From a virus (taxonomy: Duplodnaviria; Caudoviricetes): DNA of 64,000 bases. Below are positions 3,979-63,207 of the stretch, piece after piece. A program made the translations under genes and the position numbers. The stretch spans positions 24,084-88,083 of the IMG/VR virus record IMGVR_UViG_3300037483_000352, one strand, 5' to 3'. The notes beneath the pieces were generated by a model. The model did no database searches. It saw only the letters and a list, made by a program, of their open reading frames with translations, and was not told the origin of the DNA. Position 1 is the first letter of the stretch. Each line of letters opens with the position of its first letter.

Positions 3979-3984
3979 CCATGG

Positions 3985-4075
3985 TCCGTCCGGGGGACGT
4001 CCAGATCATCGGGCGTCCCTCGTCCGGGGGATGTTCCGTTTCGTCCACCGTCCCTCGTCCGGGGGATTGTTCCGG
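3985..4075 (+). repeat. Three direct repeats of CGTCCGGGGGA (3987, 4021, 4056) just downstream of traB; candidate clt
   Basis: Read directly; 34-35 bp spacing; copies 2 and 3 share GTCCCTCGTCCGGGGGAT. Confidence 0.6.
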
Positions 4076-4164
4076 AACAGATCACATCTCCCACCTAGGT
4101 ATATCCGTGCGGAACACGCCGCACGTCCACGGTCCGCGTCCAGCGGGCACCCAAGGAGACAACC

Positions 4165-4425
4165 GTGAAGATCAAGACTCGCAAGCTCAGCAAGATCATG
4201 ACGGAGGTCCGGTGGTTCACTCACGCGCTGGTGGCCGCTCTTCTGTTCATCCCCGTCGCCGGGCTCGTTCCGGGGGACAGCGTCAACCTGAACGTGATCG
4301 GATCGCTGGGTCTGATCGCCATACTGGTGGCCGCCGACCTGGCGATCACTGTCCCCCTGTCCCTGTGGCTGCGGAGGCTGAACCGCCCGGCGTTCGTGCC
4401 GGTCCGCAGCTACGCCAAGAGGTGA
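4165..4425 (+). CDS. Small membrane protein (Spd-like)
   Basis: Two TM segments; GGAG RBS; within the tra operon. Confidence 0.6.
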   Translation: MKIKTRKLSKIMTEVRWFTHALVAALLFIPVAGLVPGDSVNLNVIGSLGLIAILVAADLAITVPLSLWLRRLNRPAFVPVRSYAKR

Positions 4426-4547
4426 CCCGCAACCGTCGCCGGACCGGGCGCAAAACCCGGTCCCGCGCAACCCTGATCATCGTGGTCGGCCTGTTCCTTC
4501 TGGCCGTGGTGATCGCTGATGAGATGGGACTGACGAACCACTCATGA
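4422..4547 (+). CDS. Small basic membrane peptide
   Basis: GTGA overlap with the previous gene; Arg-rich N-terminus plus one TM segment. Confidence 0.5.
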   Translation: MTRNRRRTGRKTRSRATLIIVVGLFLLAVVIADEMGLTNHS

Positions 4548-4855
4548 GCGGAGTGAATGGAACCATGCCTGACACCCTGCACCCGGCGGATGCCGAGTAC
4601 TTCCGGACCCTGGCCCGGAACGCCGATCCCCTGTACGGGATGATCAACCTCGTCCGGTTCCAGGACAGGCTGATCGTCACCATGGCCCCCACCGTGGGGC
4701 TGATCAACCCGGAGATCCTTTTCCATGACCGGGTCCGGGGTGTCCGGGTCCACGGAGACCTGATCGAACTGTGCGACCAGGTGACCTACCGGATCACCGG
4801 GTGGGACCCCGACCAGAAGTCACTGATCGTTCTACTGGAGGCTGATCACCGATGA
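4544..4855 (+). CDS. Hypothetical protein
   Basis: ATGA-coupled ORF, 103 aa. Confidence 0.55.
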   Translation: MSGVNGTMPDTLHPADAEYFRTLARNADPLYGMINLVRFQDRLIVTMAPTVGLINPEILFHDRVRGVRVHGDLIELCDQVTYRITGWDPDQKSLIVLLEADHR

Positions 4856-5277
4856 CCGATGACCGGAAGGTGATCGTCCCCACGTCGGTCGACTCACCGA
4901 CACAGAAGATCCACCTGACCGCTTCCGATCTTGCCCGGCTGAACCAGGTGCCGGACGGGATGATGCCGGGCGCCCGGCCGGTCGTGATCAACGTGGTCCA
5001 GCAAGATCCCCCGGCCGACCGTCAGTACCGGGGTGACGATCTTCTTCGGAGGTTCGTCCCCTACTTCGTGATCACCATGATGGGTCTGGTGATCGTCGGT
5101 GGCCTCGCGGCGATCCTGGGTCTGGTGGTCCCGGTGATCATGGCGGGCATCCTGTCGATCGTCGCGTCATTCGTGTCGATCATCATGAGCCTCGTTCTGT
5201 CGATCATCGCCGGGGTCGTGATCGCGCTCGGCATCGCGTACTGCCAGACGGTCAACATCAAGAACAAGGGCCGATGA
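4852..5277 (+). CDS. Membrane protein (Spd-like)
   Basis: ATGA-coupled; long hydrophobic C-terminal half. Confidence 0.6.
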   Translation: MTDDRKVIVPTSVDSPTQKIHLTASDLARLNQVPDGMMPGARPVVINVVQQDPPADRQYRGDDLLRRFVPYFVITMMGLVIVGGLAAILGLVVPVIMAGILSIVASFVSIIMSLVLSIIAGVVIALGIAYCQTVNIKNKGR

Positions 5278-5393
5278 GCGCCAGGCACCGGCGACCGAAC
5301 AAGATCAGGGCCGCAGTGAAGGGGATGATCCTCTTGGCTGCGGCCCTGTTTTTGATCTTGGCTCCGGCCTGGACTCTGATGTCCATGCGCTGA
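5274..5393 (+). CDS. Small membrane peptide, 39 aa
   Basis: ATGA overlap; basic N-terminus plus TM segment. Confidence 0.45.
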   Translation: MSARHRRPNKIRAAVKGMILLAAALFLILAPAWTLMSMR

Positions 5394-6434
5394 GCCATGC
5401 ATAATTTCCCGGCCGAAGATCAATGTCCGTTTTTCCCGTATCGTGAAAACCAATGTTCGTGATCACGCCCCTGGCCTGCGGAAATCCCTAACCCAAAGTG
5501 GGTGGTACGCGGGTACCAGGAAGGGGGTCCAGGCCCGCAGACGGGCGTACAGAGCTTTTAAGTACCACTGTTTGTACCGCGCTTCCCCAGCATAACTACT
5601 CACCCCCGTGCATAAGTTGTTGGAGAACGCCATTTCCGCATGGTGGAAATGCCGGCTTTCCGATCTACGAAAACGCCATTCTCCACGTGCCGGGAAACGG
5701 TCCGGCCGGTCCCCTTGCTCCCGCGCTCATGTCCCCGGGAGCGCGGGTGAGTTGACCCCTCCAGAAAACTTTCTAAAGAATCTTGACGAAACCTATTGCA
5801 TCCCCCGAACGGGGGGCGCACATTGGAGACACAACAAAACAACGGGTGATCGGCCCCGAAGATCCAAAATCGGACGTCGCACAGGCCACCAGGCCTCGTG
5901 ATCACCCGGAGCCCCCGGACGGCGGGGGCGGGCCTTCGCACCGGGCCCCGGAAGTTCATCAGGTGGAGACGGCCTTACCGAAGGGCCCCAAAAAATCTTC
6001 GTAGATCCAAAGGGAACGGACCGGGTACCCCGGACGGTCGCGATCATCACCCCCGCTCACGCGGACCGGCGATCACGGCACATGGGTGATACGGAAACCC
6101 ACTACCGGCGGAACGACAGCTCAAGGATCGCTAGGAGTTGATCCGGTGGTGACCATGCGACCCGGTACCTCGTGCCGGATGGACACCCAGGGGAACAACC
6201 CGGAACGATCAAGGCGGGCATGATCTGGTGGTAGGTCCCATCGGGTGTCCGCAACATGGCACGGAGGCGATAGACACCGGCACTGGAAGCCGGGACCGAG
6301 AGGCGCCTAGCGGGTTCGGATCCCGCCCCTGCCACTGATCACCGGTTGCCAGGAACGATGGGTCACGAACCCGGGAAACAAACAGGCACGGTGTGATCAA
6401 CCACTAATCATCCGGTCAACCCGAGGAGCCGATC
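5394..6434. promoter_or_regulatory. ~1 kb non-coding control region with AT-richer patches and many hairpins; candidate rightward promoter TTGCAT(5796)-17-CACATT(5819)
   Basis: No credible ORF; lies between the tra operon and the early genes. Confidence 0.5.
5461..5560 (+). repeat. Dispersed ~100 bp element, copy 1
   Basis: Blocks CCTGCGGAAATCCCTAAC, GGGTACC and AGACGGGCGTACAGAGC are shared with the copies at 26.4, 43.9 and 61.3 kb. Confidence 0.85.
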
Positions 6435-6886
6435 ATGGCGAACCGCCAGGAGATCTTCCGGAAGGGATTCACCTACGTGATCACCCGCCGGATCGTCCAG
6501 CGGAAGACGTCGACCGTCCTCCGGGTCCGGGTCACCGCATACAAGGGCATGGCCATTCGCAGCAAGACCCCGGAGTTCAACGAGTACCGCGACTACGCCA
6601 GCATCGCCGAGGGCGACATGGTGTACGCCCGTCACATCGACAAGATCAACAAGTGAGGTACCCCATGTTCCAGATCACGGTCACCGACAGCACTGACCTG
6701 CTGGGTATCCGCACTGCCAGGACCGCCTCCGAGATGGAGGACGTTGTCACCGCGCTGCACAAGGAGTTCCCCGGGGCCCACGTCGACGTCAGGACGTTCG
6801 CTCAGATCCAGGCCGAGGACGACTACCTCGGTCGTCAGGAGACGCTGGCCGACGCAGCAGCCTGGTACGACATGGACCGCTGATCG

Positions 6887-6943
6887 ATGATCTCCGCTCG
6901 GGTGCGCGTCCCAACGGACGTGCACCCCCTGAGGCTGATCACC
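6887..6943 (+). repeat. 57 bp intergenic hairpin element, copy 1
   Basis: Near-identical to 7666-7722; 12 bp stem GGGTGCGCGTCC-CAAC-GGACGTGCACCC. Confidence 0.85.
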
Positions 6944-7665
6944 GATCAACCACCCCGTCCGGACCTACCAGGGAGCTGGCCATCATGACGAACGAGCTGA
7001 CCAAGGATGAGTTCCTGAAGATCCACGGTACGCCGACTGCGGCCGTATGGGTCACCCAGAACAGTCACCCGGCCAGCCGGACGGCCTACCAGGAGATGAC
7101 CATCGGGTCCGTCGTGTGGGCCAGGGTCACCGTGAACGGCCGGGAGATCGTCAAGCCCCGCCGGAACCTGGACCTCGTGCACCAGGGCTACAACAACCTG
7201 GTGAACCAGGCCATCAGCAGTTACGAGGACTGATCATGGACCCCGCGACCGAGATCAAGAACTTCGCCGCCGCGTGCTGCGCGGTCGACATGATCGACGA
7301 ACTGCCCCACGCCGACGCGGACAGGGACGCGATGATCCGCGACCTGGCCTCGTACGGACCCGCGATCCAGAACCGCAACCACGACGACAAGGACTGATCA
7401 TAATGTCTGACACCCGCATCCGCTCGCGCAACGTAGCGGTCGACGACACCGCGTCCCTCCACTACGACCAGGCCACCATGACCGGGACGGTCACCATGGT
7501 GGTCCGTCACACATCCGGCCCGCGCATGGGCCGTGTGGCGAAGATCCAGCTTCGTCCGGCGAACGCGTCCCGGTCCATCATGTGGTTCGTCCCCGCGCGG
7601 GACGGTGACCACTGGAACTCGGTGGGCGGGTACGTCACGGCCACGTTCTGAATGATCGCGTATCC

Positions 7666-44895: not shown

Positions 44896-47451
44896 TCAGG
44901 CGGTGTTGCCTTCGAGGAGACGGAACGCGTTCGGGTCGAGAACCTTCGATCCGTTCCTCCACACGGCGTACAGGCCGCGCTGACCGGAAGGCCGGTTGTT
45001 CGACGTGTGGAACAAGTGCGGGATCAGTTCCACCGCCATGCCGATACGGTCCACGATCAGGAACTTGGAGAAGTCCCCGAGCAGGAGCACGTAGGTGGTG
45101 TCCGTCATGGCCGTGGCCATGGTGGACGCCTCGTACACCGGGTAATCGACCAGGCGCGAGGGGCGGCCTTCGGCGATCCGGGCCCAGAGGTTCGAGCCAC
45201 CGGCCGTGTCGATCTGCCGTACGCGGTTGTACACCGCCTTGTTGCCCAGGAACGACGCGTTCGGGGTGTGGCGCGGGGGCAGATCGTCCACCAGGAGGTA
45301 GATGTCCACCGCCGCGATGCCGCCGACGGTGACCGCCTGCTTGACGCTGCCCGCGACCGCCGACACGCCGGTGATGACGCCCTCGGGGTTCGGCGGAGTG
45401 CCGTTGCCGGTGATGAACGCCGTCGCCTCTTCGGTGTCCTTGGCCTCGGCGAACATCGTTGCCAGCTCGCCGCGCATCTGCGACCAGTCCTGGTCGATCT
45501 CGAAGCTGAAGGGCACGAAGCCCTGGACGCGGGACGGCGTGACGGTCGGCTGCGCGATCGTCGGCGCGTTGTCCCCGGCCTCGGCCGCTTCAGCGGCGCG
45601 GGACACGGTGATGCCCGCCGACGTGACGCCCTGCCACTGCTTGCCCGCGATCTGGACGACTCGCGCGATCTGGCGGATCGGATTGACGACACCGGCGTCC
45701 GTGAGGATCACGGTCGGGTCCAGGTTGAACGGGACCGCGAACCCGCCGGTGGTGGTGACACCGACCGCCAGCGCCGCGCGCTCCTCGTTCGTGAGGCCGT
45801 CCGTGCCGCCCGCCAGCGCCATCTTGCCGAACGCCCGGTCGTACGTCTCGGAGCCGGTCTGGAGGATGCCCCGGGCGATCGTGCCGTCCTTGTCGTCCAC
45901 CCGGCGCAGCAGGCGTTCGATGCGGGTACGCGTCGCGTCCTCGTCGTCCACCGAGTCGTAGTGGCTCATCTCCACGGCCCGCAGCGCGTTGTCACGCATG
46001 GCCCTGGCGAGGTCATCCACGTTGCGCGCGTCACGCCGCAGGGACGTGATGTCGTAGATGTTCTCGGCACGCCGCTGCCGGATCTGGTTCGGGGCGGTGA
46101 ACCCAGTACCGTCCTCGGTGCTGCCGCTACCGGCAAGGACCGCGAGGCGTGCCGATCGTGCGTTGGCCGCCGCAATGGCCGCCGTGTGCACCTCGAACTC
46201 GGCGCTGATATCGTCCCACTCGGTCTGCCGCTCCTCGGGGAGGACCGCGCCGTTGTGCTCCGCGTCGATCTCCTGGAGCCGGGAACGGATCTCGGCCTGT
46301 CGCTGCTCGCGCTCCGCGACCGTCATGGTCAGTTCATCCATGGGGGATGCACTCCTCGTAACTTCCTTCGGCTTCAGGGGAGTTGGAGTGCTCACGCGGC
46401 TCCGGGGTACTGCCGTCCCGGCGGCCCCGGGCTTCGGGGTGCCTCCCGGCTTGGCCGGGGTGGTGCCGGTCCCGGGAGTGATCACCGGAACCTCAGTCGT
46501 GGTGCCCGCTGCGTCGGCCGCCGGAGCGGTGACCACGGGCTTCTGCGGAAGAGCATACGGCACGCCGGACAGTGGCTGTGTGGTGTCCTGCCGTTCGGCC
46601 CACTCGGTGACCTTGTCCTGGTCGTATCCCTGGTCGATCAGGCTGACGATGTACTCACTGCGCTGAGTCAGCGTCTCGTCGTCCGGTTCGACTGCGTCGG
46701 CCGTATCGGACCGGCCGGGCCCGTTGTCGGCAACGGCCGCCGCGCGCTCGGCAGCGAGGCTCTCGCGCGTCTCCCGGACGGACCGCATGGCCGTGTCGTA
46801 CTCATCCGGGCGCCGGGCCCGCAGCGCCGCGTAGTAGTCGTCCGTGGTGGACCGCATCCCGGCCGTCGCGCTGGTGTTGGCCGGGAACATCGTCGGCCCG
46901 AACTCCATGACCCGGACCTCCCGGATCGTGCGCTCCGGGATGCCGTCCGGGTTGGAGTCGGACCGCTCGGGCTCCTCGACCCACTCGTCCTGGAGGACCC
47001 GGAACCGGAACGACGACCCGTATGCACCGGCGTCCAGAGCGGGTACGAGGTCGCGCACGTACGAGGTGTCCAGCAGCGGGACCTCGTACCGGGCGCCGTC
47101 TCCGTCCTCGCTGAGCGACCGGGGCACCCCGAGGGGCTTGTCTCCCACGGTGTAGTCATGGCCATGCTCAAGCAGGCACTTGATCTTGTCGCCCGCGTTC
47201 TTCCGGGACGCGTCGTCGTTGAACGTCTTCTTGAACGACCCGGGGGCGATGCGCTCCAGGAACTTCCCTTCAAATGCCGAGTTGATCTGGTACCAGTTGT
47301 CGAACATGGAGAAATGACCCTCCATGACCGGCATGCCGTCCTTGCCGTCGGCACGCTGCTCCATCCGCAGCTCGGTTCGGTCGGAGTGGGTACGGCAGAC
47401 CGGAACAGACAGCCGCGTCGGAGGACCGTTGATCGGCTCGATATCGGGCAT
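44896..47451 (-). CDS. Fused HK97-type prohead protease and major capsid protein; possible internal start at 46341
   Basis: Protease motifs EGHFS, LEHGH, GSSFRF, EFG..FPAN; capsid motifs GGFAVP, G.GT..PEG, LLGDF; GAGGAG 10 nt before ATG 46341. Confidence 0.9.
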   Translation of the reverse strand: MPDIEPINGPPTRLSVPVCRTHSDRTELRMEQRADGKDGMPVMEGHFSMFDNWYQINSAFEGKFLERIAPGSFKKTFNDDASRKNAGDKIKCLLEHGHDYTVGDKPLGVPRSLSEDGDGARYEVPLLDTSYVRDLVPALDAGAYGSSFRFRVLQDEWVEEPERSDSNPDGIPERTIREVRVMEFGPTMFPANTSATAGMRSTTDDYYAALRARRPDEYDTAMRSVRETRESLAAERAAAVADNGPGRSDTADAVEPDDETLTQRSEYIVSLIDQGYDQDKVTEWAERQDTTQPLSGVPYALPQKPVVTAPAADAAGTTTEVPVITPGTGTTPAKPGGTPKPGAAGTAVPRSRVSTPTPLKPKEVTRSASPMDELTMTVAEREQRQAEIRSRLQEIDAEHNGAVLPEERQTEWDDISAEFEVHTAAIAAANARSARLAVLAGSGSTEDGTGFTAPNQIRQRRAENIYDITSLRRDARNVDDLARAMRDNALRAVEMSHYDSVDDEDATRTRIERLLRRVDDKDGTIARGILQTGSETYDRAFGKMALAGGTDGLTNEERAALAVGVTTTGGFAVPFNLDPTVILTDAGVVNPIRQIARVVQIAGKQWQGVTSAGITVSRAAEAAEAGDNAPTIAQPTVTPSRVQGFVPFSFEIDQDWSQMRGELATMFAEAKDTEEATAFITGNGTPPNPEGVITGVSAVAGSVKQAVTVGGIAAVDIYLLVDDLPPRHTPNASFLGNKAVYNRVRQIDTAGGSNLWARIAEGRPSRLVDYPVYEASTMATAMTDTTYVLLLGDFSKFLIVDRIGMAVELIPHLFHTSNNRPSGQRGLYAVWRNGSKVLDPNAFRLLEGNTA

Positions 47452-49990: not shown

Positions 49991-50135
49991 GCAGCGGTAC
50001 GCCGATCAGAAGTGCGGCACCGGTGCCGAACAGGCCCCATGGACCGAACAGCATGGTGAGACTCGCCGCGATCATAGCAATACCGATCAGGACAAAGATC
50101 ACGCATTCGCGCCGGGTCACCGGACCACCACCCAA
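49935..50135 (-). CDS. Small 2-TM protein
   Basis: Hydrophobic ORF between the terminase and portal genes. Confidence 0.55.
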   Translation of the reverse strand: MGGGPVTRRECVIFVLIGIAMIAASLTMLFGPWGLFGTGAALLIGVPLLVDQVDEVTERKEVKPNG

Positions 50136-51754
50136 GGATCAGCTGTCGTCAGTTCATGTGCCCTGGCCTGGAGGCCCCAGATAGCCAGGGTCGCGGCCAC
50201 CAGCGGGGAGATATCCGTCGTGGTCGACTTACGGTCCCAGGCCCACAGTTCCGCAAGATTACGCTTGGCCGCGCCGGACACCGCCAGCGTCAGGGACACC
50301 TGATCCCGGTGAACCAACCTCTGGGTCTCGCCCTGGGGAGGAACCACGGACGAACCGAACCACCCGCAGGTCTGCGCGTACTCGCGAGCCGTGGGTGACT
50401 GGACCTCCATGTTCAGGGTGTCCATAACCCCGCCTTCACGCTCCAGGTCGGTGATCAGAGACCCGGCCTGGGAAGCGCGGTCGATGACGATCGCGGCAGG
50501 TTTCCACCGGGTGATCAATGCTTCAAGCCGGGGAACCACCCACCGGTCACCGGGCTTGTGATCCAGGTCGTCCTCCCCGGTGATCTCTATGTGAGTCAGC
50601 CCGTCCGGGTTGGTACCGGCCACCGCGATGCAGGCGTACTTCCGGTCCGGGGTCATGTCGACGGCGAACACCAGGGGCGCAATGGGTGAGGACGTGAGGT
50701 CGGCCGCAGCCTGCCATGACGGCTCGTCGATGACTTGCCAGGCGTCCTCCTCAACCGGCCAGTCACCGAGTCCCAGCCGCTCCCTGTCGAATTCTTCAGG
50801 GTCCATCTGGGACTGTTCCCCAAGGATGTGTTCGAGGGACTGCCGGGGGTCCATGACGCCGCCGATCCGGATGCCGAATCCCGGGTTGGCCTTGGCGTAC
50901 GAGATGATGATCCTGTTGGTCTTGCGGATGATCTCTTCCTCGGGCATGCCGGGAAGAATCTGGAACCGCTTCTGATCGTGTTCCTCGCAGTCCCGGGGGC
51001 AGAAGTTCGAGCACGGCTCCACGGACCATTCCAGGAACGACACCCGGGGCTCCCCCCGCAGGCCACGGCGGCGCAGACGTCCGAAAGCTGTGGAGTGCTT
51101 GAACCCGGCCGACCCGGCGTAGATCACTTGCGGATTCGGCACGGCGGACAGCGTGGGCAGGATCGCGCCTACCGCGACGCCGGACAGGATCATGGCCTCG
51201 TTGAAGATCAGACAATCACATGTCCAGCCACGGCCGCCGCCCTCCGTCCGGGTACGGAACCGCAGCTCACGAGTCACCCCGTCACGGACGATCTCGATGC
51301 CCTCCTTGCCGTGCGACCGGCTGACCGACCCCCGGTGTGTGGTGAGGAACCGGTCAAGGTCGGGGGTGGATTCGATCAGCTGCTCGATGCGCTGGAAGTG
51401 CCGCAAAGCCGTGTCGTAGAGGTGGGCACTGTGGATAGTCAGCTCGTCGTCTTCGGACAGGAACAGGCCGAACAGCTCACGGGCTTCGAGGACGACGTCC
51501 TTGCCGTTCTGGCGTCCGGCCACCAGCCCGAAATCCCTGGATGACCACCTTCCGTCGCTCTGGACTCCGAGTAGTTCGTCCAGCGCCAGCGCCTCCCAAG
51601 GGTCGAGTTCGAGGCCCGCTATGGATGCCAGCTCGCGGGCCTCTTGCCCGCGAGAACTGATCTTCGAGGGGACGCAGTAGATCCGGGGTATCTGATCGCC
51701 CTGGTCGGGCAGGATCAGACGCGGATCCCATGCGTCCACCCGGAGAAGGCTCAC
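50117..51754 (-). CDS. terL: Terminase large subunit
   Basis: Walker A GRQNGK, SAH....A, RG...D.LIFNEA, RERLG.W, nuclease VDMTPDR. Confidence 0.92.
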   Translation of the reverse strand: MSLLRVDAWDPRLILPDQGDQIPRIYCVPSKISSRGQEARELASIAGLELDPWEALALDELLGVQSDGRWSSRDFGLVAGRQNGKDVVLEARELFGLFLSEDDELTIHSAHLYDTALRHFQRIEQLIESTPDLDRFLTTHRGSVSRSHGKEGIEIVRDGVTRELRFRTRTEGGGRGWTCDCLIFNEAMILSGVAVGAILPTLSAVPNPQVIYAGSAGFKHSTAFGRLRRRGLRGEPRVSFLEWSVEPCSNFCPRDCEEHDQKRFQILPGMPEEEIIRKTNRIIISYAKANPGFGIRIGGVMDPRQSLEHILGEQSQMDPEEFDRERLGLGDWPVEEDAWQVIDEPSWQAAADLTSSPIAPLVFAVDMTPDRKYACIAVAGTNPDGLTHIEITGEDDLDHKPGDRWVVPRLEALITRWKPAAIVIDRASQAGSLITDLEREGGVMDTLNMEVQSPTAREYAQTCGWFGSSVVPPQGETQRLVHRDQVSLTLAVSGAAKRNLAELWAWDRKSTTTDISPLVAATLAIWGLQARAHELTTADPWVVVR

Positions 51755-52197
51755 CGGACGGCGCCGTGACCGGATCCGCGACGGCGGCCGTTCGCCTCAC
51801 GCCGGGGACCACCGAGGGACCCCGGCCGCCGCGCGGCCAGCTCATCGTAGGCAGACATGTGCCCGGGGTCATCCGGGACTTTCTGGGGGTCGGACTCTTC
51901 GATCCCCTGCGCTTTCATAAGCTGCCGGATCAGGGACGAAGACACTTCCACCGACCGGTTGTTCCCGCCGATGGCGGATACCCACACGGACGACAACAGA
52001 CGTGAGATCCTGGCCATCTGAAGCGCCCTGGTGGCGGTCGGAGACAGGGCGTCAATGGGGTTTTCCGTAAGCGCTGTTTCTACGTCCGCGACGGCTTCCG
52101 TGCGCGAGGAATAGCCGCACTCGACGACGATCACGTTCCAGTCGACACCCGCGAGGGCAAAGCCAAAAGCCTTCTTACGGCGTGCTTCGGGGGTCAT
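51751..52197 (-). CDS. terS: Terminase small subunit
   Basis: N-terminal HTH and helical core; overlaps the terL start. Confidence 0.7.
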   Translation of the reverse strand: MTPEARRKKAFGFALAGVDWNVIVVECGYSSRTEAVADVETALTENPIDALSPTATRALQMARISRLLSSVWVSAIGGNNRSVEVSSSLIRQLMKAQGIEESDPQKVPDDPGHMSAYDELAARRPGSLGGPRREANGRRRGSGHGAVR

Positions 52198-52210
52198 CGG
52201 GGGCCACCTC

Positions 52211-52966
52211 CTAATATCCGGACACCGTGGCGAAAGCGCCCATGACTACCCACGAGTGCCACCGGAAGAGTACTTCCGGAGCCTTCCACCCGGCCGACTC
52301 CATGGTCATTTTCAGGGTGGATTCAGGGTACGGCATGAGGACTCCCCGGAGCGCTGAGGCCTTTGCCCGAATGGCTGACGCGTCGATCCCGTGGTCAGCC
52401 TTCCAGTCGTGGCTGAGGTCGTTGGCAATCTCCGCCCACCGGGCATCGGTGGGCCGGACCTTCTCCGCCACCAGCAGGGCGCCGGTTTCGTTGGCGCACA
52501 TGCGCGCGTTGCGCAACGCCGCCAGACGGCCCCGGAGAGACATGAACTGGAGGGTGAAGAAGATCAAGGTCAGGTCGGCGTCGGCGTGCTTGAGGGGCTG
52601 GGTGATGTCGTGATCGAAGTACTGCACGTGCTCCCCGGAATGTGGCTCCTTCGCCATGAGCGCGGATGCCCGGGTGAGCATCGGCTGTTCCACGTCATAG
52701 AGCGCCGCATGGATGTTCCGCTGAGGATGACGGGCCATCATCCGGCGCACGGTGGTGCCCGTGCTGGCCCCCAGGTCGGCCACCAAGCCACCGGCCGGAA
52801 CAGTCCAGTCGGAGACTTGGGCAGCAAGATCCTGAATGGCGTCGTAGAACGGGACCGAAGCCCGGACGTGCTGGTCGAAGACGTCCACCACGTCCTGGGT
52901 GAAGGCCCATGATCCGGTCTGGAACTGCTCGGCGACGTCAGCCGTAGAGCCGTCGGTGTTCGGCAC
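52211..52966 (-). CDS. cmoA: CmoA-like carboxy-S-adenosylmethionine synthase homolog
   Basis: W.F...V..VFD..V..SVP.Y, DLG.S.G, FTLQF, LLVAEK, HDWK...G align by eye along the full length of E. coli CmoA. Confidence 0.8.
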   Translation of the reverse strand: MPNTDGSTADVAEQFQTGSWAFTQDVVDVFDQHVRASVPFYDAIQDLAAQVSDWTVPAGGLVADLGASTGTTVRRMMARHPQRNIHAALYDVEQPMLTRASALMAKEPHSGEHVQYFDHDITQPLKHADADLTLIFFTLQFMSLRGRLAALRNARMCANETGALLVAEKVRPTDARWAEIANDLSHDWKADHGIDASAIRAKASALRGVLMPYPESTLKMTMESAGWKAPEVLFRWHSWVVMGAFATVSGY

Positions 52967-54341
52967 GGTAGTACCTCACTGGTTGTGCGAGTCGGGTGGT
53001 GATCGCGGTCTTGAGCCCCATGCCGTCCTGGAAGGCCACCTTGGGGCGTTCGATCACTGCTGAGGGTAGGTCACCCCGGTAAGCCCGCTGGAGGACGGCC
53101 TTGGGCTGCCCAGGCCCGTTCTGGACGGACACCCGGGGCAAGGACAGGGCGAAGTCCACCACGTCCGGGTCGAGGAAGGGCAGGCGGCCCTCCACCCCGT
53201 GAGCCATGAACGCCTTGTTGACCCGGGGGAAATTCTTGATCGCCTGGGACAGGATCAAGTCGCGCCGGTAGGTGTGCCAGTCCTGCTTCTGGAGGCCGTG
53301 GTACGCGAACCCGTACGAGGCCCACAGCTCGTCGGATCCCTCGCCGGTGAACGTGACCTTGAAGCCGTCGGACCGGATCCGTTCGGCCAGCGCGAGGCAC
53401 GGCCAGCCGATCTCGATCTGCGCCTTGAACGGCATCTCGATGTGGCGGATCACGCCAACCAGGTCGTCCGCCGTGGGGACGTCGACCTTCACTTCAACCA
53501 GGGCCAGCCCGAGCGCTTCGGCCGTCTCGCGTGCGCACCGCAGATCACGTGACTTGGGGTCGAGCACGGCGGTGTAGCAGACCAAATCCGGTGTGCGTTG
53601 GGCGAGTTCATAGGCGATGACCGCAGAGTCGATCCCGCCGGACAGAAGCGAGCAGACCGGGACATCCGAGATCATGCGCCGGTCGACTGCGCGGGACAGC
53701 GCGGTACGAAGGATCTTGCTGGCGTCCAGAGGCTGGACGTCCATGGGCAACGGGGCCAGCCGGTGGAATGCATGCGGGGTGATATCCCCGGCCTTGTCGA
53801 TCTCCCACCACTGCCCCGGCGGGACGTCCACCACGGCCGCTCCGCAGCGCCGACCCAGCGCGGTGAACGCCTTCAACTCGGAAGCCACCACCACGGGATG
53901 AGCACGGTGAACATGCAGTGGGATCTCCCCCCGCCGGTCGCGCGCCACGAACAACACGCCCGGCCGGTCCCTATCCGCCCACGCGATGGCGAACATGCCG
54001 TCGAACAAGGGGAGTGCGGCCCCCGGACCGAGCACGGCAAGAGCCGCCGCGATCACTTCGGTGTCCCCGGTGGTGTGCCACACCCGGCCAGGGTCAAGAG
54101 CTTCGACCCGGCTCCGAACCCGGGGCGCGTTGAACAGTTCGCCGTTGTAGGAGATCGTCACCGCGCCGTCGGTGTACGGCTGATCCGACCGGCTGTCCAC
54201 GTCCTGTATCGCCAGCCGGGTGTGCCCGAGACGGACGCCTCCGACTACCGTGATCCCGCGCGCGTCCGGACCCCGGTGGTCCATGGCCAGGACGGCCGGG
54301 GCGAGATGGGCCCACCCGGCCACCGCCACGATGCCGCACAT
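52938..54341 (-). CDS. asnB: Asparagine-synthetase-B-like glutamine amidotransferase
   Basis: MCGI N-terminal nucleophile, HRGPD, GHTRL, NGEL.N, PP-loop SGGIDS, GEGSDE, EGRLPFLD. Confidence 0.9.
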   Translation of the reverse strand: MCGIVAVAGWAHLAPAVLAMDHRGPDARGITVVGGVRLGHTRLAIQDVDSRSDQPYTDGAVTISYNGELFNAPRVRSRVEALDPGRVWHTTGDTEVIAAALAVLGPGAALPLFDGMFAIAWADRDRPGVLFVARDRRGEIPLHVHRAHPVVVASELKAFTALGRRCGAAVVDVPPGQWWEIDKAGDITPHAFHRLAPLPMDVQPLDASKILRTALSRAVDRRMISDVPVCSLLSGGIDSAVIAYELAQRTPDLVCYTAVLDPKSRDLRCARETAEALGLALVEVKVDVPTADDLVGVIRHIEMPFKAQIEIGWPCLALAERIRSDGFKVTFTGEGSDELWASYGFAYHGLQKQDWHTYRRDLILSQAIKNFPRVNKAFMAHGVEGRLPFLDPDVVDFALSLPRVSVQNGPGQPKAVLQRAYRGDLPSAVIERPKVAFQDGMGLKTAITTRLAQPVRYYRAEHRRLYG

Positions 54342-55651
54342 CAGATGATCCCCTCTTCGAGCAGGGGCATGAGGATCTTGTCCCGGACCGTCTCTGCGAT
54401 CTTCGCCATCATGACCGGCGGGACCGCGCGCCCGATCCGCTCCCACCGCTGGCTGTAACTACCCGTCAGGGTGAAGTCCGGCGGGAACCCCCCGAGGGCC
54501 CGCAGTTCGACCAGGTTGAGCTTGCGGGGCTCCGTCCAGTGGGCCGGGCCGGTGATCGTGATGTCGCCCTGCGCAGCCATGATCGTGTCGTACGGCTGGT
54601 CCGGGTGCTGCCGCCGCACGTGGAAGTACTTCTGCGACTTCTGGCCGGGCCGAAGCTTCTTCCACTCCTCGTGCACGGCATACCCGATCATGGACAAATT
54701 CTGGCCGGTCTCGGGGTCTACTGGATCGCCTCCATTCATCACGTGGTGGTACGTCTGAGTGGTAAGGGGAGGGATCGGGGTATCGGTCACGTCACCCTTG
54801 GAGAACGTGGGCCGGGACCCCCGGGTGTCGTGCACCATGCGCACGTCGTCCGTGACGACCCTCGCGCCGTGGCCGCGTGTCGGCCCGGTGGTGACCGCAG
54901 GCGAAGGTTCGTCAGCAGCCCGCAGCGCACCGCCTTCGAAACGCTGCCGGTCGTACTGCGCGCCGATGTACGGCAGCGCGTCCCGCACGGTGTACTGGTA
55001 CGGCATGGGGCGAGGGTGGACCGGAGCCATCGCCAAGTCGTTGCGGACCCCGACCAGGATCAGCCGGTTGCGGACCTGGGGGACACCCAGCCAGGCCGCA
55101 TTCAGCACCTTCGCGATGACCCGGTAACCGGCCGCCTTGAGCGCCGCGAGGATCTCCAGGAAGTAGCCCTTGGCCACCCCGCGCACCAGGCCCGCAACGT
55201 TCTCCGCGACGAACACCCGGGGCTGCGTTTCCTTGATCAACCGGACGTATTCGAAGAAGAGATCGTCGACCCGCTGCTTGGTGTCCGAGTACTTCTTGAC
55301 CTTGCCCCATCCGCCCTCCAGCCTCCCCGCTGTGGAGAATGCTGAGCACGGGGGCGAACCGTCGAACAGGTCGATCTCTCCGACACCCAGCCCGGCCGCC
55401 GCGAGCAGGTCCGCGCCGGTGACTTCCCGGATATCCCGGGTGTCCAGATGGGTGTACGGAGCCATGTTGTTCCGGTAGGTGTCCTGCGCCGCCGAGACGA
55501 ACTCGGACGCATAGAGCATCCGGAACCCCGCCATACGGTCGCCGGTCGAAGATCCTCCGCACCCGCTGAAAGTCGACACGGCGTTGAAACCGTTCCACGG
55601 CAGGTCCCTGATCTGCTCCATGGTCATTACGGAGTACGGGGGCTTGATCAC
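54341..55651 (-). CDS. C5-cytosine DNA methyltransferase-fold enzyme, predicted carboxymethyltransferase
   Basis: FSGCGG (I), GSPPC (IV), ENV.GL (VI), Q.R.R (VIII); motif X reads IGRAVPP instead of IGNAVPP. Confidence 0.88.
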   Translation of the reverse strand: MIKPPYSVMTMEQIRDLPWNGFNAVSTFSGCGGSSTGDRMAGFRMLYASEFVSAAQDTYRNNMAPYTHLDTRDIREVTGADLLAAAGLGVGEIDLFDGSPPCSAFSTAGRLEGGWGKVKKYSDTKQRVDDLFFEYVRLIKETQPRVFVAENVAGLVRGVAKGYFLEILAALKAAGYRVIAKVLNAAWLGVPQVRNRLILVGVRNDLAMAPVHPRPMPYQYTVRDALPYIGAQYDRQRFEGGALRAADEPSPAVTTGPTRGHGARVVTDDVRMVHDTRGSRPTFSKGDVTDTPIPPLTTQTYHHVMNGGDPVDPETGQNLSMIGYAVHEEWKKLRPGQKSQKYFHVRRQHPDQPYDTIMAAQGDITITGPAHWTEPRKLNLVELRALGGFPPDFTLTGSYSQRWERIGRAVPPVMMAKIAETVRDKILMPLLEEGII

Positions 55652-56172
55652 TTGGAACCGCCGGACCAATGGTAGCCGCATTTAGGGCATGTGTGTTCGG
55701 TCTTGATCGTCTCGTCGAATTCCGCGAAGTCCTCCGGCGCCTGTGGTGCCTCCACCGCCAGCGCGGCTTCCAGGTCGCCGACGTACCCAGCAATCTCCTC
55801 GTCTGTGTACCCGGTACCGGCGCCGTCGCCCTCCAGGTCCCGCAGCAGCAGCGCGAGGGCCTGTTCGTCGTCCTCCGCCAGGTCGTTGGACCGGTTGTCG
55901 ACCAGGTTTATCCGGCGGGCCGTGTCGTCATCGCAGTCGATGAACTCGCACCGGGCCTGGGTGCCCCCGAGTTCACTGATGGCGGTCATGGTGTGGTTAC
56001 CGGCCAGCACGATCTGAGGGCCGTTCTTGATCTCCCGGACGATCAGCGACCGGTACTGACCGTTCTTCTCGATGGACTCCTTGATGACGTCCACCCGGCC
56101 GCGCCGGGCATTGCCGGGGAACGGGGTGAGCTGGTCGAGAGAGACCATTTCGGTGCGCAGGTAGCGGGTCAT
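55648..56172 (-). CDS. ParB/Sulfiredoxin-like domain protein with a C-terminal CPKC zinc ribbon
   Basis: PGNARRG..IKESI..NG...LIV...LAGNHT...DN. Confidence 0.8.
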   Translation of the reverse strand: MTRYLRTEMVSLDQLTPFPGNARRGRVDVIKESIEKNGQYRSLIVREIKNGPQIVLAGNHTMTAISELGGTQARCEFIDCDDDTARRINLVDNRSNDLAEDDEQALALLLRDLEGDGAGTGYTDEEIAGYVGDLEAALAVEAPQAPEDFAEFDETIKTEHTCPKCGYHWSGGSK

Positions 56173-56188
56173 GATTTTCCGATCTTCG

Positions 56189-56344
56189 TCAGCCGTCCAA
56201 GAAATCGACCGTGGTGGTCCGGTCCTCCGCCATGACGACGACCATCCGGGGGTATCCGGCGGAGTCCGCCGTGACCTCGGATCCGACCACCGTGGTCCGG
56301 TCCTCTGCCTCGATCACGACCACTCGTTCCTCAGCGTCGGGCAT
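56189..56344 (-). CDS. 51 aa peptide with two V.AEDRT motifs (absent from the ORF track)
   Basis: GAGGTG RBS; MPDAEERVVVIEAEDRTT...MVVVMAEDRTTTVDFLDG. Confidence 0.55.
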   Translation of the reverse strand: MPDAEERVVVIEAEDRTTVVGSEVTADSAGYPRMVVVMAEDRTTTVDFLDG

Positions 56345-56348
56345 GCCG

Positions 56349-57491
56349 TCACCTCACCCTCAATGTCCGGTCCTCGGCATCGACCACGGACACCCGGGCG
56401 CCTACGACCCGGGTATTGCTCGTGAACGCCCCCACAGCGGCCGGGAGCGTCCCCGTGACGGTACCTGACGCCGTGGCGGTCCCCTCGATCGATCCGGTCA
56501 CTTTGAGCAGCAGGCCGGACAAAGATCCGGGCGCGTTCACCCCGCCGTCGAAGTCGGCCGTGGCTGCGCGGAGTGTTCCGGCGAACGGCCCGGCGGAAGT
56601 GACCGTGACCGACACCAGGCCGGTGGCCGCCGACAGCGCGCCAGACGCAGTCCCGGAGATCAGGGCTGCGGCCGTCATGGCGCCCGTGACCGGCGTGAGC
56701 GTACCGGCCACCGTGCCGGACGCCAGCACTACGCCGGTCACGGCGCCCGTGACGGCCGGGATCGTACCGGCCACCGTGCCGGACACGAGGGCGTCAGACG
56801 TGATCGATCCGGTGGTCTGGGGTAGTGTGCCACCGACCACGGCCACGACCGTCAGGGACGCCGTCAGGGACGCCGTGGGGGCACTCAGGGTCCCGGCCAA
56901 CTCCCCGTCGGCAGACACCGTGCCCGTGAACATGGCCTCGAACGATTCGAGCTGCGGCAGAGTGCCTTCGAGGATGTTGGTCCTGCTGACCGCGAAGAAC
57001 CCGGTCACCGCCGGAAGCATGCCGTGCAGGGAGTCGATCGGGAGGCTGGCCGTGATGTCCCCGGTGGCCGCCGACAAGGTTCCGGCCAGGGTGCCGGTGA
57101 CCAGGGCATCGGCCGCGAGGTCGCCGGTCACGGCGGTCAGGGTCCCGGCCAGGGTGCCGGTCACCTCGGCCGACGCGGTGAACGATCCGGTGGCCGCCGT
57201 CAGGGTTCCGGCCAGGGTGCCGGTGGCCACGACGTCCGCAGCGAGGTCTCCGGTGGCCGCCATCAGGGCCCCGGCGAAGGTACCGGTTACGGACGCATCG
57301 GCCGCGATATCGCCGGTCACGGCAGCGAGGACGCCGGGCAGGGTACCGGTCACGGATGCCGACGCGGTGAATGACCCGGTGGCCGCCGTCAGGGTCCCGG
57401 TCAGTTCAGCGTCGACCGGGGTAGCGGTCTGCTCCGCCTGGAACTGCGTCGTGTACGCACTCGCGGGGTGGCCGCGACCGAGACGAACCAT
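56349..57491 (-). CDS. Thr/Ala/Gly repeat protein, probable beta-solenoid virion fibre
   Basis: About 15 imperfect GTL.A.TG repeats. Confidence 0.65.
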   Translation of the reverse strand: MVRLGRGHPASAYTTQFQAEQTATPVDAELTGTLTAATGSFTASASVTGTLPGVLAAVTGDIAADASVTGTFAGALMAATGDLAADVVATGTLAGTLTAATGSFTASAEVTGTLAGTLTAVTGDLAADALVTGTLAGTLSAATGDITASLPIDSLHGMLPAVTGFFAVSRTNILEGTLPQLESFEAMFTGTVSADGELAGTLSAPTASLTASLTVVAVVGGTLPQTTGSITSDALVSGTVAGTIPAVTGAVTGVVLASGTVAGTLTPVTGAMTAAALISGTASGALSAATGLVSVTVTSAGPFAGTLRAATADFDGGVNAPGSLSGLLLKVTGSIEGTATASGTVTGTLPAAVGAFTSNTRVVGARVSVVDAEDRTLRVR

Positions 57492-57514
57492 TGATCACAC
57501 CCGCCCCCGTCGGA

Positions 57515-58012
57515 TCAGACTTCGAACATGATGTACGCGAGGATTGTGTACGTGGCCGCCGTGTTGATCCTGAGCTGGCAGAACTTACCGGCCTGGACCA
57601 GGAAGTCACGGCCCAGCGGGAACTGCTTTTCGTAGTGCTCGGTGGGGTCGCCGATGAACGCGCCGAACTGCCGCTCGGTGGTGTTCGTAGTGATCGAGAC
57701 AGCCCCGTACCCCGTGGTGGTGGTGGAGAACGTCAGGGGGCAGGCGCGGGAGCTGTCGCCCACGGGCGCCACCGACGCAGCACTGTGCGCCGTCAACGTA
57801 CTAGCCGCCGATGCCTGCGCCAGGGTGTACAGCGTCTTGGCCGCCGGAGCCGTGGCCGACGACGACACGCCCCACTCGACAAGGCGAATGTCCGCACCGG
57901 CCGGAGCCGCGAGCTGGATAGCCACCTTGGCCCCTGTGACGTACGACGTACCGGCAGCCATCATGCCGGTGGTCGCGTCGTGCAGGCCGTTGTACGCGAT
58001 GTACAGAGTCAT
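57515..58012 (-). CDS. Hypothetical protein, probably virion-associated
   Basis: Coupled ORF with beta-rich composition. Confidence 0.55.
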   Translation of the reverse strand: MTLYIAYNGLHDATTGMMAAGTSYVTGAKVAIQLAAPAGADIRLVEWGVSSSATAPAAKTLYTLAQASAASTLTAHSAASVAPVGDSSRACPLTFSTTTTGYGAVSITTNTTERQFGAFIGDPTEHYEKQFPLGRDFLVQAGKFCQLRINTAATYTILAYIMFEV

Positions 58013-61566: not shown

Positions 61567-63207
61567 TCACGACTGCCAAGGCCACTTCGCCGACCGGCCG
61601 CCGTCCAGCAGGCCGACCATGGTGAACAGCTTGTCACTGAATCCGCCGACCTCGTACCGGTTGCGCTGCGAGGTGTCCAGCGGAGAGGCCTGGTACCCGG
61701 ATGTGTCGATCGAGAACAGCGGCACACTCTCGGGGATCACGTTGCCCAGTGTGGACCAGCCGGACACGAAACGTCCGTACTGGCCGTCGTGGCAGATGAT
61801 CACCCGGTCGTGTCCCCTGTAGGTGGCCTGGAGAGCCGCCACGGTGTTGGTGCCGTGGCCGACCTTGCCAACGCACCGGTCGAACGACTCCATGTCCCGG
61901 AGCACAGAACCACCCAGCGTCAGCTGGAACCGGAACGCGTCATCGGCGAACCCGACCACGTCCACCGAACCCAGGGACCGGTGAGCGAACGTCAGGCCGA
62001 CCAGGGCCGCCACGTCCACGTGCCGGACCATGGACTTCGCGGACACGGGGTCGCGCATGGATCCTGACGTGTCGACCATCACCAGGGTCCGGCCGGTGAA
62101 CTCCGGGACGTTCGCCATGGAGTAACGCAGGGCCACCTCAAGGGCGTGACCCCACCGCAGCGAGGGCGCCGCCTTGTACGCGGACAGGAACCGGTAGGGG
62201 AACTGCCTGGACTTCGCGATCTGCTCGGGGTCCATCAGCCGGGATGTCACGAGCTGCGCAGCCTTGTCCGAGACCCCGGCCTCGTCGAAGTTCCGGAGGT
62301 TGCGGATCAATGCCATGATCCCCATGTTAGGGATCATGGCCTCCCACACCTTGCGCTTGTCGGCCGACACGTTGCCGGACAGCGACACCGCGTCCTCCCA
62401 CGTCATGCCCGCCGCGCGCAGCCGGTCCGGGTCGTACAGCCACTCAGGGTGGCGGTCAACATCGGCACGCAATGCGCGGTTCGCGAGCACCACCGCCAGG
62501 GACTCCGGGACCTGCTCCGGGTGACCCGGGCCGGACAGACGGGGACGCCGGTGCAGCGCGTAGGTGAACAGGTCGGCCTGCTCCGGGCTGTTCGGCTTGG
62601 GGTGCACGAACTCCTGGACGTCACCGAAGCGCATGCCACGGGACGCGGTGTCGTACTTCAGCAGCGAGTGCTGGTGGTACAGGCGCCGGACCGCGTCAGC
62701 CACACCACGCTTGACCGGCATGGGGAGGTTCCGTCCGTAGTGCGCGACCCAGTACGCGAGGAACTCACCCGGCTCGTCGGGGCGCTGGAGTACCGCGTCG
62801 ATGAACGCGCGCGGGCCGGTGAGCCGCTTCGCGGAGTGGTCCGGGAGGTCGGCTTCGAAGGGATCGAGTCCGCCCGCCAGTCGTGCCCGGGTGCCGACCG
62901 CAGCGGCCACCAGGGAAGCGCTGCGCATGTTGGCCTCGCCACGGAGCCAGCGCAGGAAGTCCAGGAAGTCAGCGGGCTGGCTGACGGCCGCCGTCTGGCA
63001 CAGATCGGCGAAGCGGCTGTCGCGGCCATCGGCCGACTCGTAGAACGTGTCCTCGCCGACCATGTTGACCACGGCGAGGAGGACCAGTTCGGACAGCGAG
63101 TCACGGACCCAGGCCCGGCCGCCCTCGTGGGTGACGGTCTCGGCAACGGTGGTCGCCGGGTGAGACACAGCCGGGCGTACGCCGAGCCGGTTGAACTTCG
63201 CGCACAT
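61567..63207 (-). CDS. rsr: Ro60 ortholog (TROVE plus vWA domains)
   Basis: DTFYE, RGEANMR, LQRPDE, ALIRNLRNF, SRQFPYRF..AY; MIDAS DTSGSM. Confidence 0.92.
   Translation of the reverse strand: MCAKFNRLGVRPAVSHPATTVAETVTHEGGRAWVRDSLSELVLLAVVNMVGEDTFYESADGRDSRFADLCQTAAVSQPADFLDFLRWLRGEANMRSASLVAAAVGTRARLAGGLDPFEADLPDHSAKRLTGPRAFIDAVLQRPDEPGEFLAYWVAHYGRNLPMPVKRGVADAVRRLYHQHSLLKYDTASRGMRFGDVQEFVHPKPNSPEQADLFTYALHRRPRLSGPGHPEQVPESLAVVLANRALRADVDRHPEWLYDPDRLRAAGMTWEDAVSLSGNVSADKRKVWEAMIPNMGIMALIRNLRNFDEAGVSDKAAQLVTSRLMDPEQIAKSRQFPYRFLSAYKAAPSLRWGHALEVALRYSMANVPEFTGRTLVMVDTSGSMRDPVSAKSMVRHVDVAALVGLTFAHRSLGSVDVVGFADDAFRFQLTLGGSVLRDMESFDRCVGKVGHGTNTVAALQATYRGHDRVIICHDGQYGRFVSGWSTLGNVIPESVPLFSIDTSGYQASPLDTSQRNRYEVGGFSDKLFTMVGLLDGGRSAKWPWQS

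Follow-up and report, generated by a model that had tools for sequence, protein, structure and literature searches.

Our analysis reports on a four-gene cassette at 52211-56172 on the minus strand of a 64,000-nucleotide stretch of viral DNA (the window; bases 24084-88083 of the 88,083-bp IMG/VR virus record IMGVR_UViG_3300037483_000352, CheckV completeness 82%). Reading along that strand, the cassette encodes a ParB-like protein, a CmoX-type DNA cytosine C5 transferase, an AsnB-like amidotransferase and a homologue of the carboxy-S-adenosylmethionine (carboxy-SAM) synthase CmoA. We propose that this late-operon cassette of an actinobacterial phage makes 5-carbamoylmethylcytosine by way of carboxy-SAM, 5-carboxymethylcytosine (5cxmC) and glutamine-dependent amidation, a reading to which we assign a probability of roughly 60%.

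In the proposed pathway the CmoA homologue would convert S-adenosylmethionine (SAM) and host prephenate to carboxy-SAM. The SPPC Cys of the CmoX-type transferase would then attack C6 of cytosine while its motif-X Arg holds the carboxylate of carboxy-SAM, and the carboxymethyl group would pass to C5 of cytosine in the phage DNA, giving 5cxmC. In a third step the PP-loop domain of the AsnB-like enzyme would adenylate the carboxylate of 5cxmC, and its N-terminal Cys would hydrolyse glutamine, with the ammonia travelling to the synthetase site to yield 5-carbamoylmethylcytosine, a primary amide whose nucleoside should have the mass of deoxycytidine + 57.02 Da ([M+H]+ 285.12). The ParB-like protein would help the transferase to engage phage DNA. 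We infer the first two steps from the close agreement of the window proteins with the proven enzymes of Synechococcus phage S-B43, while the third step is put forward as a proposal, as are the choice of amine, a DNA substrate in place of a small molecule, and a protective effect against host nucleases. From the sequences, formation of 5cxmC by the cassette appears highly probable and, given 5cxmC, its glutamine-dependent amidation on DNA would be likely.

The initial annotation of this DNA had presented the pathway as a candidate new one. The chemistry that it claimed is consistent with every sequence and context test that we ran, but the gene set and the idea of glutamine-derived ammonia have been in print since December 2025 (PMC12783734). 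In S-B43, SpCmoA makes carboxy-SAM and SpCmoX forms 5cxmC at GC sites (Yang et al., Nat Commun, 7 Dec 2025, PMC12783734), and SpCmoY ligates glycine to 5cxmC already in DNA; the accompanying survey counted 5,615 CmoX, 4,257 CmoA, 2,251 ligases and 1,660 ParBc neighbours (PMC12783734). For the 'second largest' cluster of CmoX-associated ligases, which has A0A7T0Q3R0 at its head, the same authors suggested that the substrate is ammonia derived from glutamine (PMC12783734). Because A0A7T0Q3R0 is gp124 of Streptomyces phage TurkishDelight (UniRef100_A0A7T0Q3R0) and a 68-70% identical, full-length orthologue of the window amidotransferase (E 2.6e-213), the hypothesis was already published for the same protein cluster. 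The window enzyme lies within the limits used for that cluster (e-56, ~30% identity in PMC12783734) and has CmoX and CmoA as neighbours too. The annotation had also said that it knew of no demonstration of the amide base in actinophage DNA, and here the literature agrees: no paper on 5-carbamoylmethylcytosine, whose name was tried in several forms, came up in the searchable literature, and the cluster enzyme was insoluble (PMC12783734). A literature search on TurkishDelight found no paper. The window cassette is a new example of a published gene set, and its final base is a prediction.

The predicted cytosine carboxymethyltransferase

The best match to the transferase among solved structures is SpCmoX itself (8YF3, E 2.6e-64), followed by HaeIII (1.7e-21), and the window protein and SpCmoX belong to the same PHROG (116). 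The segment 'GSPPCSAFS' of the window enzyme aligns on S95-C98 of SpCmoX, and 'ERIGRAVPP' aligns with 'ERVGRMVPP' of 8YF3, placing the Arg of GRAV on Arg350, where it replaces the Asn of motif X. In the 1.9 Å structure Arg350 touches the carboxymethyl group of carboxy-SAM; the R350N variant is inactive, and wild-type SpCmoX uses carboxy-SAM only (PMC12783734). The window transferase also has the FSGCGG (motif I), ENV ('AENV') and QxRxR ('PQVRNR') motifs, and in CmoX the active-site Glu of ENV and Arg of QxRxR contact the cytosine (PMC12783734). Motifs VIII and IX are separated by a longer stretch than in SpCmoX, one that cannot be aligned with it, so the GC specificity of SpCmoX cannot be assumed for the window transferase; as no characterised enzyme could be aligned over the recognition region (~residues 210-365), no target motif is proposed.

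The predicted carboxy-SAM synthase

The top NCBIfam matches of the fourth protein are CmoA models (TIGR00740 at 4e-30), and among solved structures it comes closest to H. influenzae YecO (PDB 1IM8) and E. coli CmoA (4GEK), both at ~1e-18. It falls in phrog_4752 (1e-50), the PHROG of the proven SpCmoA (7e-71), which is a highly active carboxy-SAM synthase (PMC12783734). In E. coli CmoA the sole residue contacting the carboxylate of the cofactor is Arg199 (PMC4482062). The column of this residue is Glu in SpCmoA, and both SpCmoA and the window protein carry an Arg four positions further on, at a Glu of the E. coli enzyme; the window segment 'KASALRG' aligns with 'KEKELRD' of SpCmoA. The two positions covary over 78 viral loci, 68 of which have Glu or Ala followed by Arg, with the E. 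coli-type Arg followed by Glu in 5-7. It thus looks as though the Arg has been relocated by one helical turn and not lost. Judged from this covariation, together with the PHROG shared with SpCmoA, the window homologue is likely to make carboxy-SAM. No CmoB-like gene accompanies CmoA in the cassette.

The AsnB-like amidotransferase

The third protein combines the Asn_synthase domain (PF00733, 1.7e-48) with GATase_6/7, matches phrog_16728 at 8e-116 and finds E. coli AsnB (1CT9) at E 1.2e-43. Its AlphaFold model (predicted local distance difference test score, pLDDT, 90) superposes on AsnB and on human ASNS across both domains with a template modelling (TM) score of 0.82; the fold searches with the models of this protein and of the ParB-like protein only confirmed the assignments based on sequence. 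To examine individual residues, 14 family members were aligned with E. coli AsnB, whose numbering is used here. The nucleophile Cys, R49, N74, G75, E76 and D98 are invariant in all 14 and in AsnB, and the PP-loop, E348, R387 and K449 are likewise kept. Because all of its glutamine-binding and catalytic residues are invariant, the glutaminase domain bears the signature of ammonia delivery.

The site that handles aspartate in AsnB is altered. The family has A, Q and E at the positions of T322, T323 and R325; where AsnB has V-T-T-I-R it shows K-A-Q-I/V-E, and KAQ[VI]E, with Glu at the position of Arg325, is kept in 79 of the 80 IMG/VR loci described below. In AsnB, Thr322 and Thr323 are reportedly needed for the formation of beta-aspartyl-AMP (aspartyl-adenosine monophosphate). 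The R325A change abolishes the activity of E. coli AsnB, according to a passage of PMC8496222 that cites Boehlein 1997. The family further differs from E. coli AsnB in having L for K376 and N for D384, lacks the last ~70 residues of AsnB and one AsnB insertion, and the window protein scores below the curated AsnB cut-offs (TIGR01536, 245.3 vs 267.1; NF006949, 237.5 vs 499). The invariant Lys and Glu of KAQxE align with the invariant Lys98 and Glu102 of SpCmoY (hhalign probability 95%), residues that AsnB does not have. SpCmoY is without a glutaminase domain, whereas the window enzyme has GATase_6/7 and the N-terminal Cys. A total of 1,092 proteins are related to the window amidotransferase at E <= 1e-20; the best 120 of the 1,092 are 52-92% identical to it, and the part beyond these 120 may include cellular AsnB.

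Recurrence of the cassette and exchange of the ligase

The initial annotation had named as a check a gene-neighbourhood search for cmoA with a GRAV-type methyltransferase and asnB. A scan of IMG/VR yielded 80 loci that encode the amidotransferase, and the module is present in these contigs as well as in TurkishDelight and prophages. CmoA stands near the amidotransferase in 77 of the 80 viral loci and CmoX in 70, and the misses are mostly at contig ends. All 68 alignable neighbouring transferases carry the motif-X Arg and all 70 carry SPPC. Two gene orders occur: ParB-CmoX-amidotransferase-CmoA in actinophages, and CmoA-amidotransferase-CmoX in aquatic loci. The arrangement is far beyond chance.

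TurkishDelight, which grows on Streptomyces scabiei, is the closest cultured relative; its gp122-125 form the same cassette with the same 29-nucleotide overlap, at the end of the genome and adjoining the terminase side. Streptomyces and Streptosporangium prophages have the same gene order, again beside terminase genes. When the cassette was compared by megablast with 50,697 phage records there was no match, and its relatives are detectable at the protein level only. The cassette appears to behave as a mobile module, because the terminase of the window phage is not closely related to the TurkishDelight backbone.

The clearest indication of the substrate comes from a cyanophage contig (L038; IMGVR_UViG_3300021356_000140, 4306-7513) whose CmoA and CmoX are 88% and 94% identical to the proven S-B43 enzymes. 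In this contig the slot of the 271-residue glycine ligase CmoY holds a 465-residue, full-length orthologue that is 42% identical to the window amidotransferase. Because the slot sits between the enzymes that make 5cxmC, the swapped ligase would act on the same substrate, and close relatives among the cyanophages probably differ in their final base through the exchange of one gene. On balance we favour the view that the AsnB-like enzyme works on polymeric DNA, converting 5cxmC to 5-carbamoylmethylcytosine, and that phages swap it with CmoY in the same slot and so vary the final base.

About 50 similar marine loci (L030-L088) are cyanophage contigs with a glutaminase-type amidotransferase where S-B43 has CmoY, and with CmoA and CmoX that are almost the same as the proven S-B43 enzymes. 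In one further contig (L025; IMGVR_UViG_3300029267_001426, 3819-6404) an open reading frame of 861 residues joins transferase and amidotransferase; a frameshift is the most likely cause, because the conserved C-terminal helix of the transferase is lost just before the junction, and a true fusion is also doubtful because an N-terminal nucleophile (Ntn) glutaminase requires a free N-terminal Cys.

A CmoA-like protein in another setting is found in Gordonia phage Evaa (L003; OP434461.1, 1-3952), where it is 48% identical to that of the window, has the phage-type Arg pattern and is encoded directly upstream of the terminase. The complete 61-kb genome of Evaa contains no PF00145 C5-methyltransferase and no AsnB-like gene. 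Its gp2 (511 residues) joins ParB-N to a Rossmann domain with a 'VDFGAG' motif, belongs to phrog_5475 and has no match to a methyltransferase family of Pfam. This protein may be a transferase of non-C5 type that uses carboxy-SAM. A preliminary search for such non-C5 carboxy-SAM transferases found no candidates (PMC12783734).

The ParB-like protein

The first protein of the cassette has no Pfam match at 0.01; its model (pLDDT 85) matches ParB-N/Noc and sulfiredoxin folds in Foldseek, with ParB-N/Noc at E 4e-7. Its sequence includes a 'GNHT' motif and, near the C terminus, a conserved knuckle of the form His-x-Cys-Pro-x-Cys-Gly-Tyr, of which Cys162, Pro163 and Cys165 do not vary among 8 homologues. 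Other phages have fusions of ParB-N domains with methyltransferases, and ParBc proteins, of unknown function, are neighbours in 1,660 CmoX contigs (PMC12783734). It is plausible that the protein is a DNA-binding accessory that loads the transferase on DNA.

The tail of the ParB-like protein (window 55648-55700) reads His-x-Cys-Pro-Lys/Arg-Cys-Gly-Tyr-x-Trp-Ser-Gly, has only two invariant Cys residues and ends at the start of the transferase. It may be half of a zinc site, to be completed by a partner or by dimerization.

Alternative explanations

Several observations weigh against the proposed pathway. The window phage is known from a metagenomic virus record alone (CheckV 82%). Its CmoA homologue scores below the CmoA cut-offs (TIGR00740, 105.2 vs 193.3 bits; NF011995, 70 vs 285) and has Ala in the column of E. 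coli Arg199. The TIGR01536 score of the amidotransferase is near that of true AsnB (245 bits against a cut-off of 267), and the enzyme keeps the acidic cluster E348/D351/E352 of AsnB, which is partly lost in SpCmoY and which in human ASNS binds the alpha-amino group of aspartyl-AMP (PMC6748925). Its identity to SpCmoY is only 21% (E 3e-8), and the PHROGs of the two differ (phrog_16728 vs phrog_26038). No soluble enzyme was obtained for the A0A7T0Q3R0 cluster (PMC12783734), no member of which has been characterised biochemically.

Some of these features would suit an auxiliary metabolic gene for a true asparagine synthetase, or for an amidotransferase of some other small molecule, in a phage whose DNA stops at 5cxmC. 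The match to 1CT9 (E 1.2e-43), the score close to the TIGR01536 cut-off and the retention of E348, D351, R387 and K449 point in this direction, but the enzyme has replaced T322, T323 and R325, the last by Glu in 79/80 loci and at a position where, in the passage cited above, substitution by Ala kills E. coli AsnB. The C-terminal ~70 residues of AsnB are also absent. Two unrelated phage lineages keep the gene firmly between CmoX and CmoA or next to them, and in a cyanophage locus it replaces CmoY; we regard this explanation as improbable. The retained acidic cluster could also serve a reversed order of events, as carboxy-SAM itself has an alpha-amino-acid moiety: carboxy-SAM would be amidated first to a carbamoylmethyl-SAM analogue, which would then be transferred whole to cytosine to give the same final base. 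Such an order has little likelihood, since an Arg that pairs with the carboxylate would be pointless with a neutral amide cofactor and yet is kept in 68/68 transferases, and since the analogous SpCmoY acts on 5cxmC in DNA.

A more probable departure from the scheme, while still an unlikely one, is that 5cxmC is formed by the cassette and the AsnB-like enzyme then joins to it some nucleophile that is not ammonia, for instance a different amine or, as with TsnB9, a donor of hydroxylamine type, giving a different amide. Members of the AsnB family have diverged to other acyl or nitrogen substrates, and beta-lactam synthetase, carbapenam synthetase and the hydroxyamidotransferase TsnB9 are among the fold matches; more amine substrates are also expected among the CmoX-linked ligases (PMC12783734). 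Against this stand the invariant glutaminase residues, a signature of ammonia delivery, and no gene for the biosynthesis of an unusual nitrogen donor is present in the cassette or among its conserved neighbours. The least probable of these alternatives is that no carboxymethyl base is made in DNA at all, with the transferase an ordinary 5-methylcytosine methylase or CmoA serving host tRNA modification. The CmoA score below its curated cut-off and the missing Arg at the E. coli Arg199 column are what such an explanation would draw upon; SpCmoX accepts carboxy-SAM only, however, and its Arg is conserved in the window transferase, no CmoB-like gene stands beside CmoA, and SpCmoA, with the same relocated Arg, is highly active (PMC12783734). 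A second ATP-dependent step leading to a nitrile, as performed by QueC, finds no support. We continue to favour formation of 5cxmC followed by amidation with glutamine-derived ammonia on DNA.

Gene junctions and genomic context

The features of the cassette and of the adjoining terminase genes are listed in Table 1. The initial annotation had described four translationally coupled genes with GTGA and TGATG overlaps and had named them as ParB-like, C5-methyltransferase with a GRAV motif X, AsnB-like and CmoA-like; all were found, on the minus strand, and the identities are borne out by family matches. The stop codon of the ParB-like gene and the start of the transferase gene share GTGA (55651-55648), the stop of the transferase and the start of the amidotransferase share TGATG (54343-54339), and the amidotransferase and CmoA genes overlap by 29 nucleotides, with a GAGG ribosome-binding site preceding CmoA. 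The most likely start of the transferase is GTG 55651 rather than ATG 55681, which gives the longest open reading frame, because homologues start 1-3 residues ahead of a conserved KPPY in which Pro-Tyr is invariant. For the AsnB-like gene an upstream GTG at 54446 was rejected and ATG 54341 taken, giving Met-Cys.

Table 1. Coordinates of the cassette, of its key residues and of the adjoining terminase genes (window positions).
Feature	Position	Strand	Evidence
ParB/Srx-like N-terminal domain protein, 174 residues	55648..56172	-	phrog_723 5e-43
CmoX-type DNA cytosine C5-carboxymethyltransferase (predicted), 436 residues	54341..55651	-	PF00145 1e-50; 8YF3
Catalytic Cys codon, motif IV SPPC, of transferase	55346..55348	-	alignment to SpCmoX
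Arg codon, motif X GRAV, of transferase	54428..54430	-	aligned to SpCmoX Arg350
Glutamine-hydrolysing AsnB-like amidotransferase (predicted), 467 residues, starts Met-Cys	52938..54341	-	PF00733, GATase_6/7, phrog_16728
N-terminal nucleophile Cys codon of amidotransferase glutaminase domain	54336..54338	-	alignment
PP-loop SGGIDS (ATP pyrophosphatase motif) of amidotransferase	53625..53642	-	alignment
KAQIE segment of amidotransferase, in place of AsnB V-T-T-I-R	53412..53426	-	alignment
CmoA-like carboxy-SAM synthase (predicted), 251 residues, GTG start	52211..52966	-	TIGR00740, phrog_4752
CmoA Arg207 codon, one helical turn past the E. coli Arg199 column (Ala203 here)	52346..52348	-	alignment
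Putative small terminase, 148 residues (context)	51751..52197	-	position only
Large terminase (context)	50117..51754	-	phrog_9 6e-57

The cassette lies directly upstream of the terminase, portal and head genes in the late region of the window, which has a GC content of ~66%; this region, on the minus strand, is typical of tailed phages, with terL, a portal gene and a fused protease-major head protein. The placement of the cassette upstream of terS, claimed in the initial annotation, stands as to distance, with 13 nucleotides from the CmoA stop to the next ATG, while the identity of terS is by position only: the putative gene overlaps terL by GTGA, is without a match in Pfam and NCBIfam, and has a weak PHROG match (phrog_645). 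The nearest relatives of TerL are actinophage terminases at <=42% identity, the nearest being those of Rhodococcus phages at 42%. Scanning 51500-57700 for promoters and terminators yielded no signal above the level expected from shuffled sequence.

Elsewhere on the minus strand, a single open reading frame of 851 residues (window 44896-47451) encodes both head-maturation protease (phrog_80) and major head protein (phrog_10). A protein of 546 residues (window 61567-63207) matches phrog_850, 'RNA-binding protein', at 1.5e-36, and a gene for 380 residues just upstream of the cassette (window 56349-57491) has no PHROG match and a sub-threshold match to bactofilin.

Comparison with known systems and implications

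The closest characterised relative of the cassette is the CmoA-CmoX-CmoY system of S-B43. Both pair a carboxy-SAM synthase with a C5 transferase bearing SPPC and the motif-X Arg, from the same PHROGs (4752, 116), both have a PP-loop enzyme of the Asn_synthase family in the same operon, and in both a carboxyl 'handle' would be followed by ATP-dependent formation of an amide. The third enzymes differ, CmoY having 271 residues and no glutaminase domain and the window enzyme 467 residues with a full glutaminase domain, and from this different member of the family the window product is predicted to be a primary amide and not a glycine amide. The window also differs from S-B43 in its gene order, its added ParB-like gene, its actinobacterial host and its longer, unalignable target-recognition region. 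Judged by sequence, the finding belongs to the TurkishDelight gp124/A0A7T0Q3R0 group, with which it shares the four-gene cassette, the 29-nucleotide overlap and the position beside the terminase genes, while the phage backbone differs and there is no nucleotide match.

With AsnB (E. coli 1CT9; human ASNS 6GQ3) the window enzyme shares the two-domain fold, the Cys glutaminase, the PP-loop, E348, D351, R387 and K449, and both are expected to form an acyl-adenylate that reacts with ammonia delivered through a channel from the glutaminase site. The residues of the aspartyl-AMP site are altered, and the context of the window enzyme suggests a DNA-borne carboxylate and not aspartate as its substrate. 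The CmoA fold is shared with the E. coli CmoA/CmoB system for tRNA cmo5U34, as probably is the synthesis of carboxy-SAM from SAM and prephenate; the window differs in being without CmoB, in a proposed acceptor that is C5 of DNA cytosine, and in the displacement of Arg199 by one helical turn, as in SpCmoA. In engineered M.MpeI N374K, a basic residue in place of the motif-X Asn lets the enzyme accept carboxy-SAM, as described in PMC12783734; that enzyme has an engineered Lys and is of a different lineage, whereas the Arg of the window transferase is natural.

The carbamoylmethyl substituent has a parallel in another phage. The product of Mom in phage Mu, N6-carbamoylmethyl-adenine, places a neutral carbamoylmethyl group on a DNA base and is an anti-restriction device. 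Mom acts on N6 of adenine through an unrelated enzyme and chemistry, but the substituent is the one predicted for the window, and by this analogy the base made by the cassette may serve to evade restriction. N6-carbamoylmethyl-adenine is mentioned in PMC12923530.

The current picture of the CmoA/CmoX system is unchanged by our analysis, which is confirmatory and not surprising; it adds independent in-silico support for the idea of an ammonia ligase in the form of the slot swap, the covarying Arg of CmoA and the altered aspartate site. The window enzyme, its many relatives and the cultured TurkishDelight offer alternatives for the experiment that Yang et al. left open owing to an insoluble enzyme. 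If the proposal is true, the natural bases of DNA would gain a new member in 5-carbamoylmethylcytosine, and the enzyme that forms it would be a glutamine amidotransferase acting on DNA. The slot swap suggests that phages may diversify the final base by exchange of the ligase only, which would bear on the arms races between phages and their hosts and on enzymatic tools for DNA labelling.

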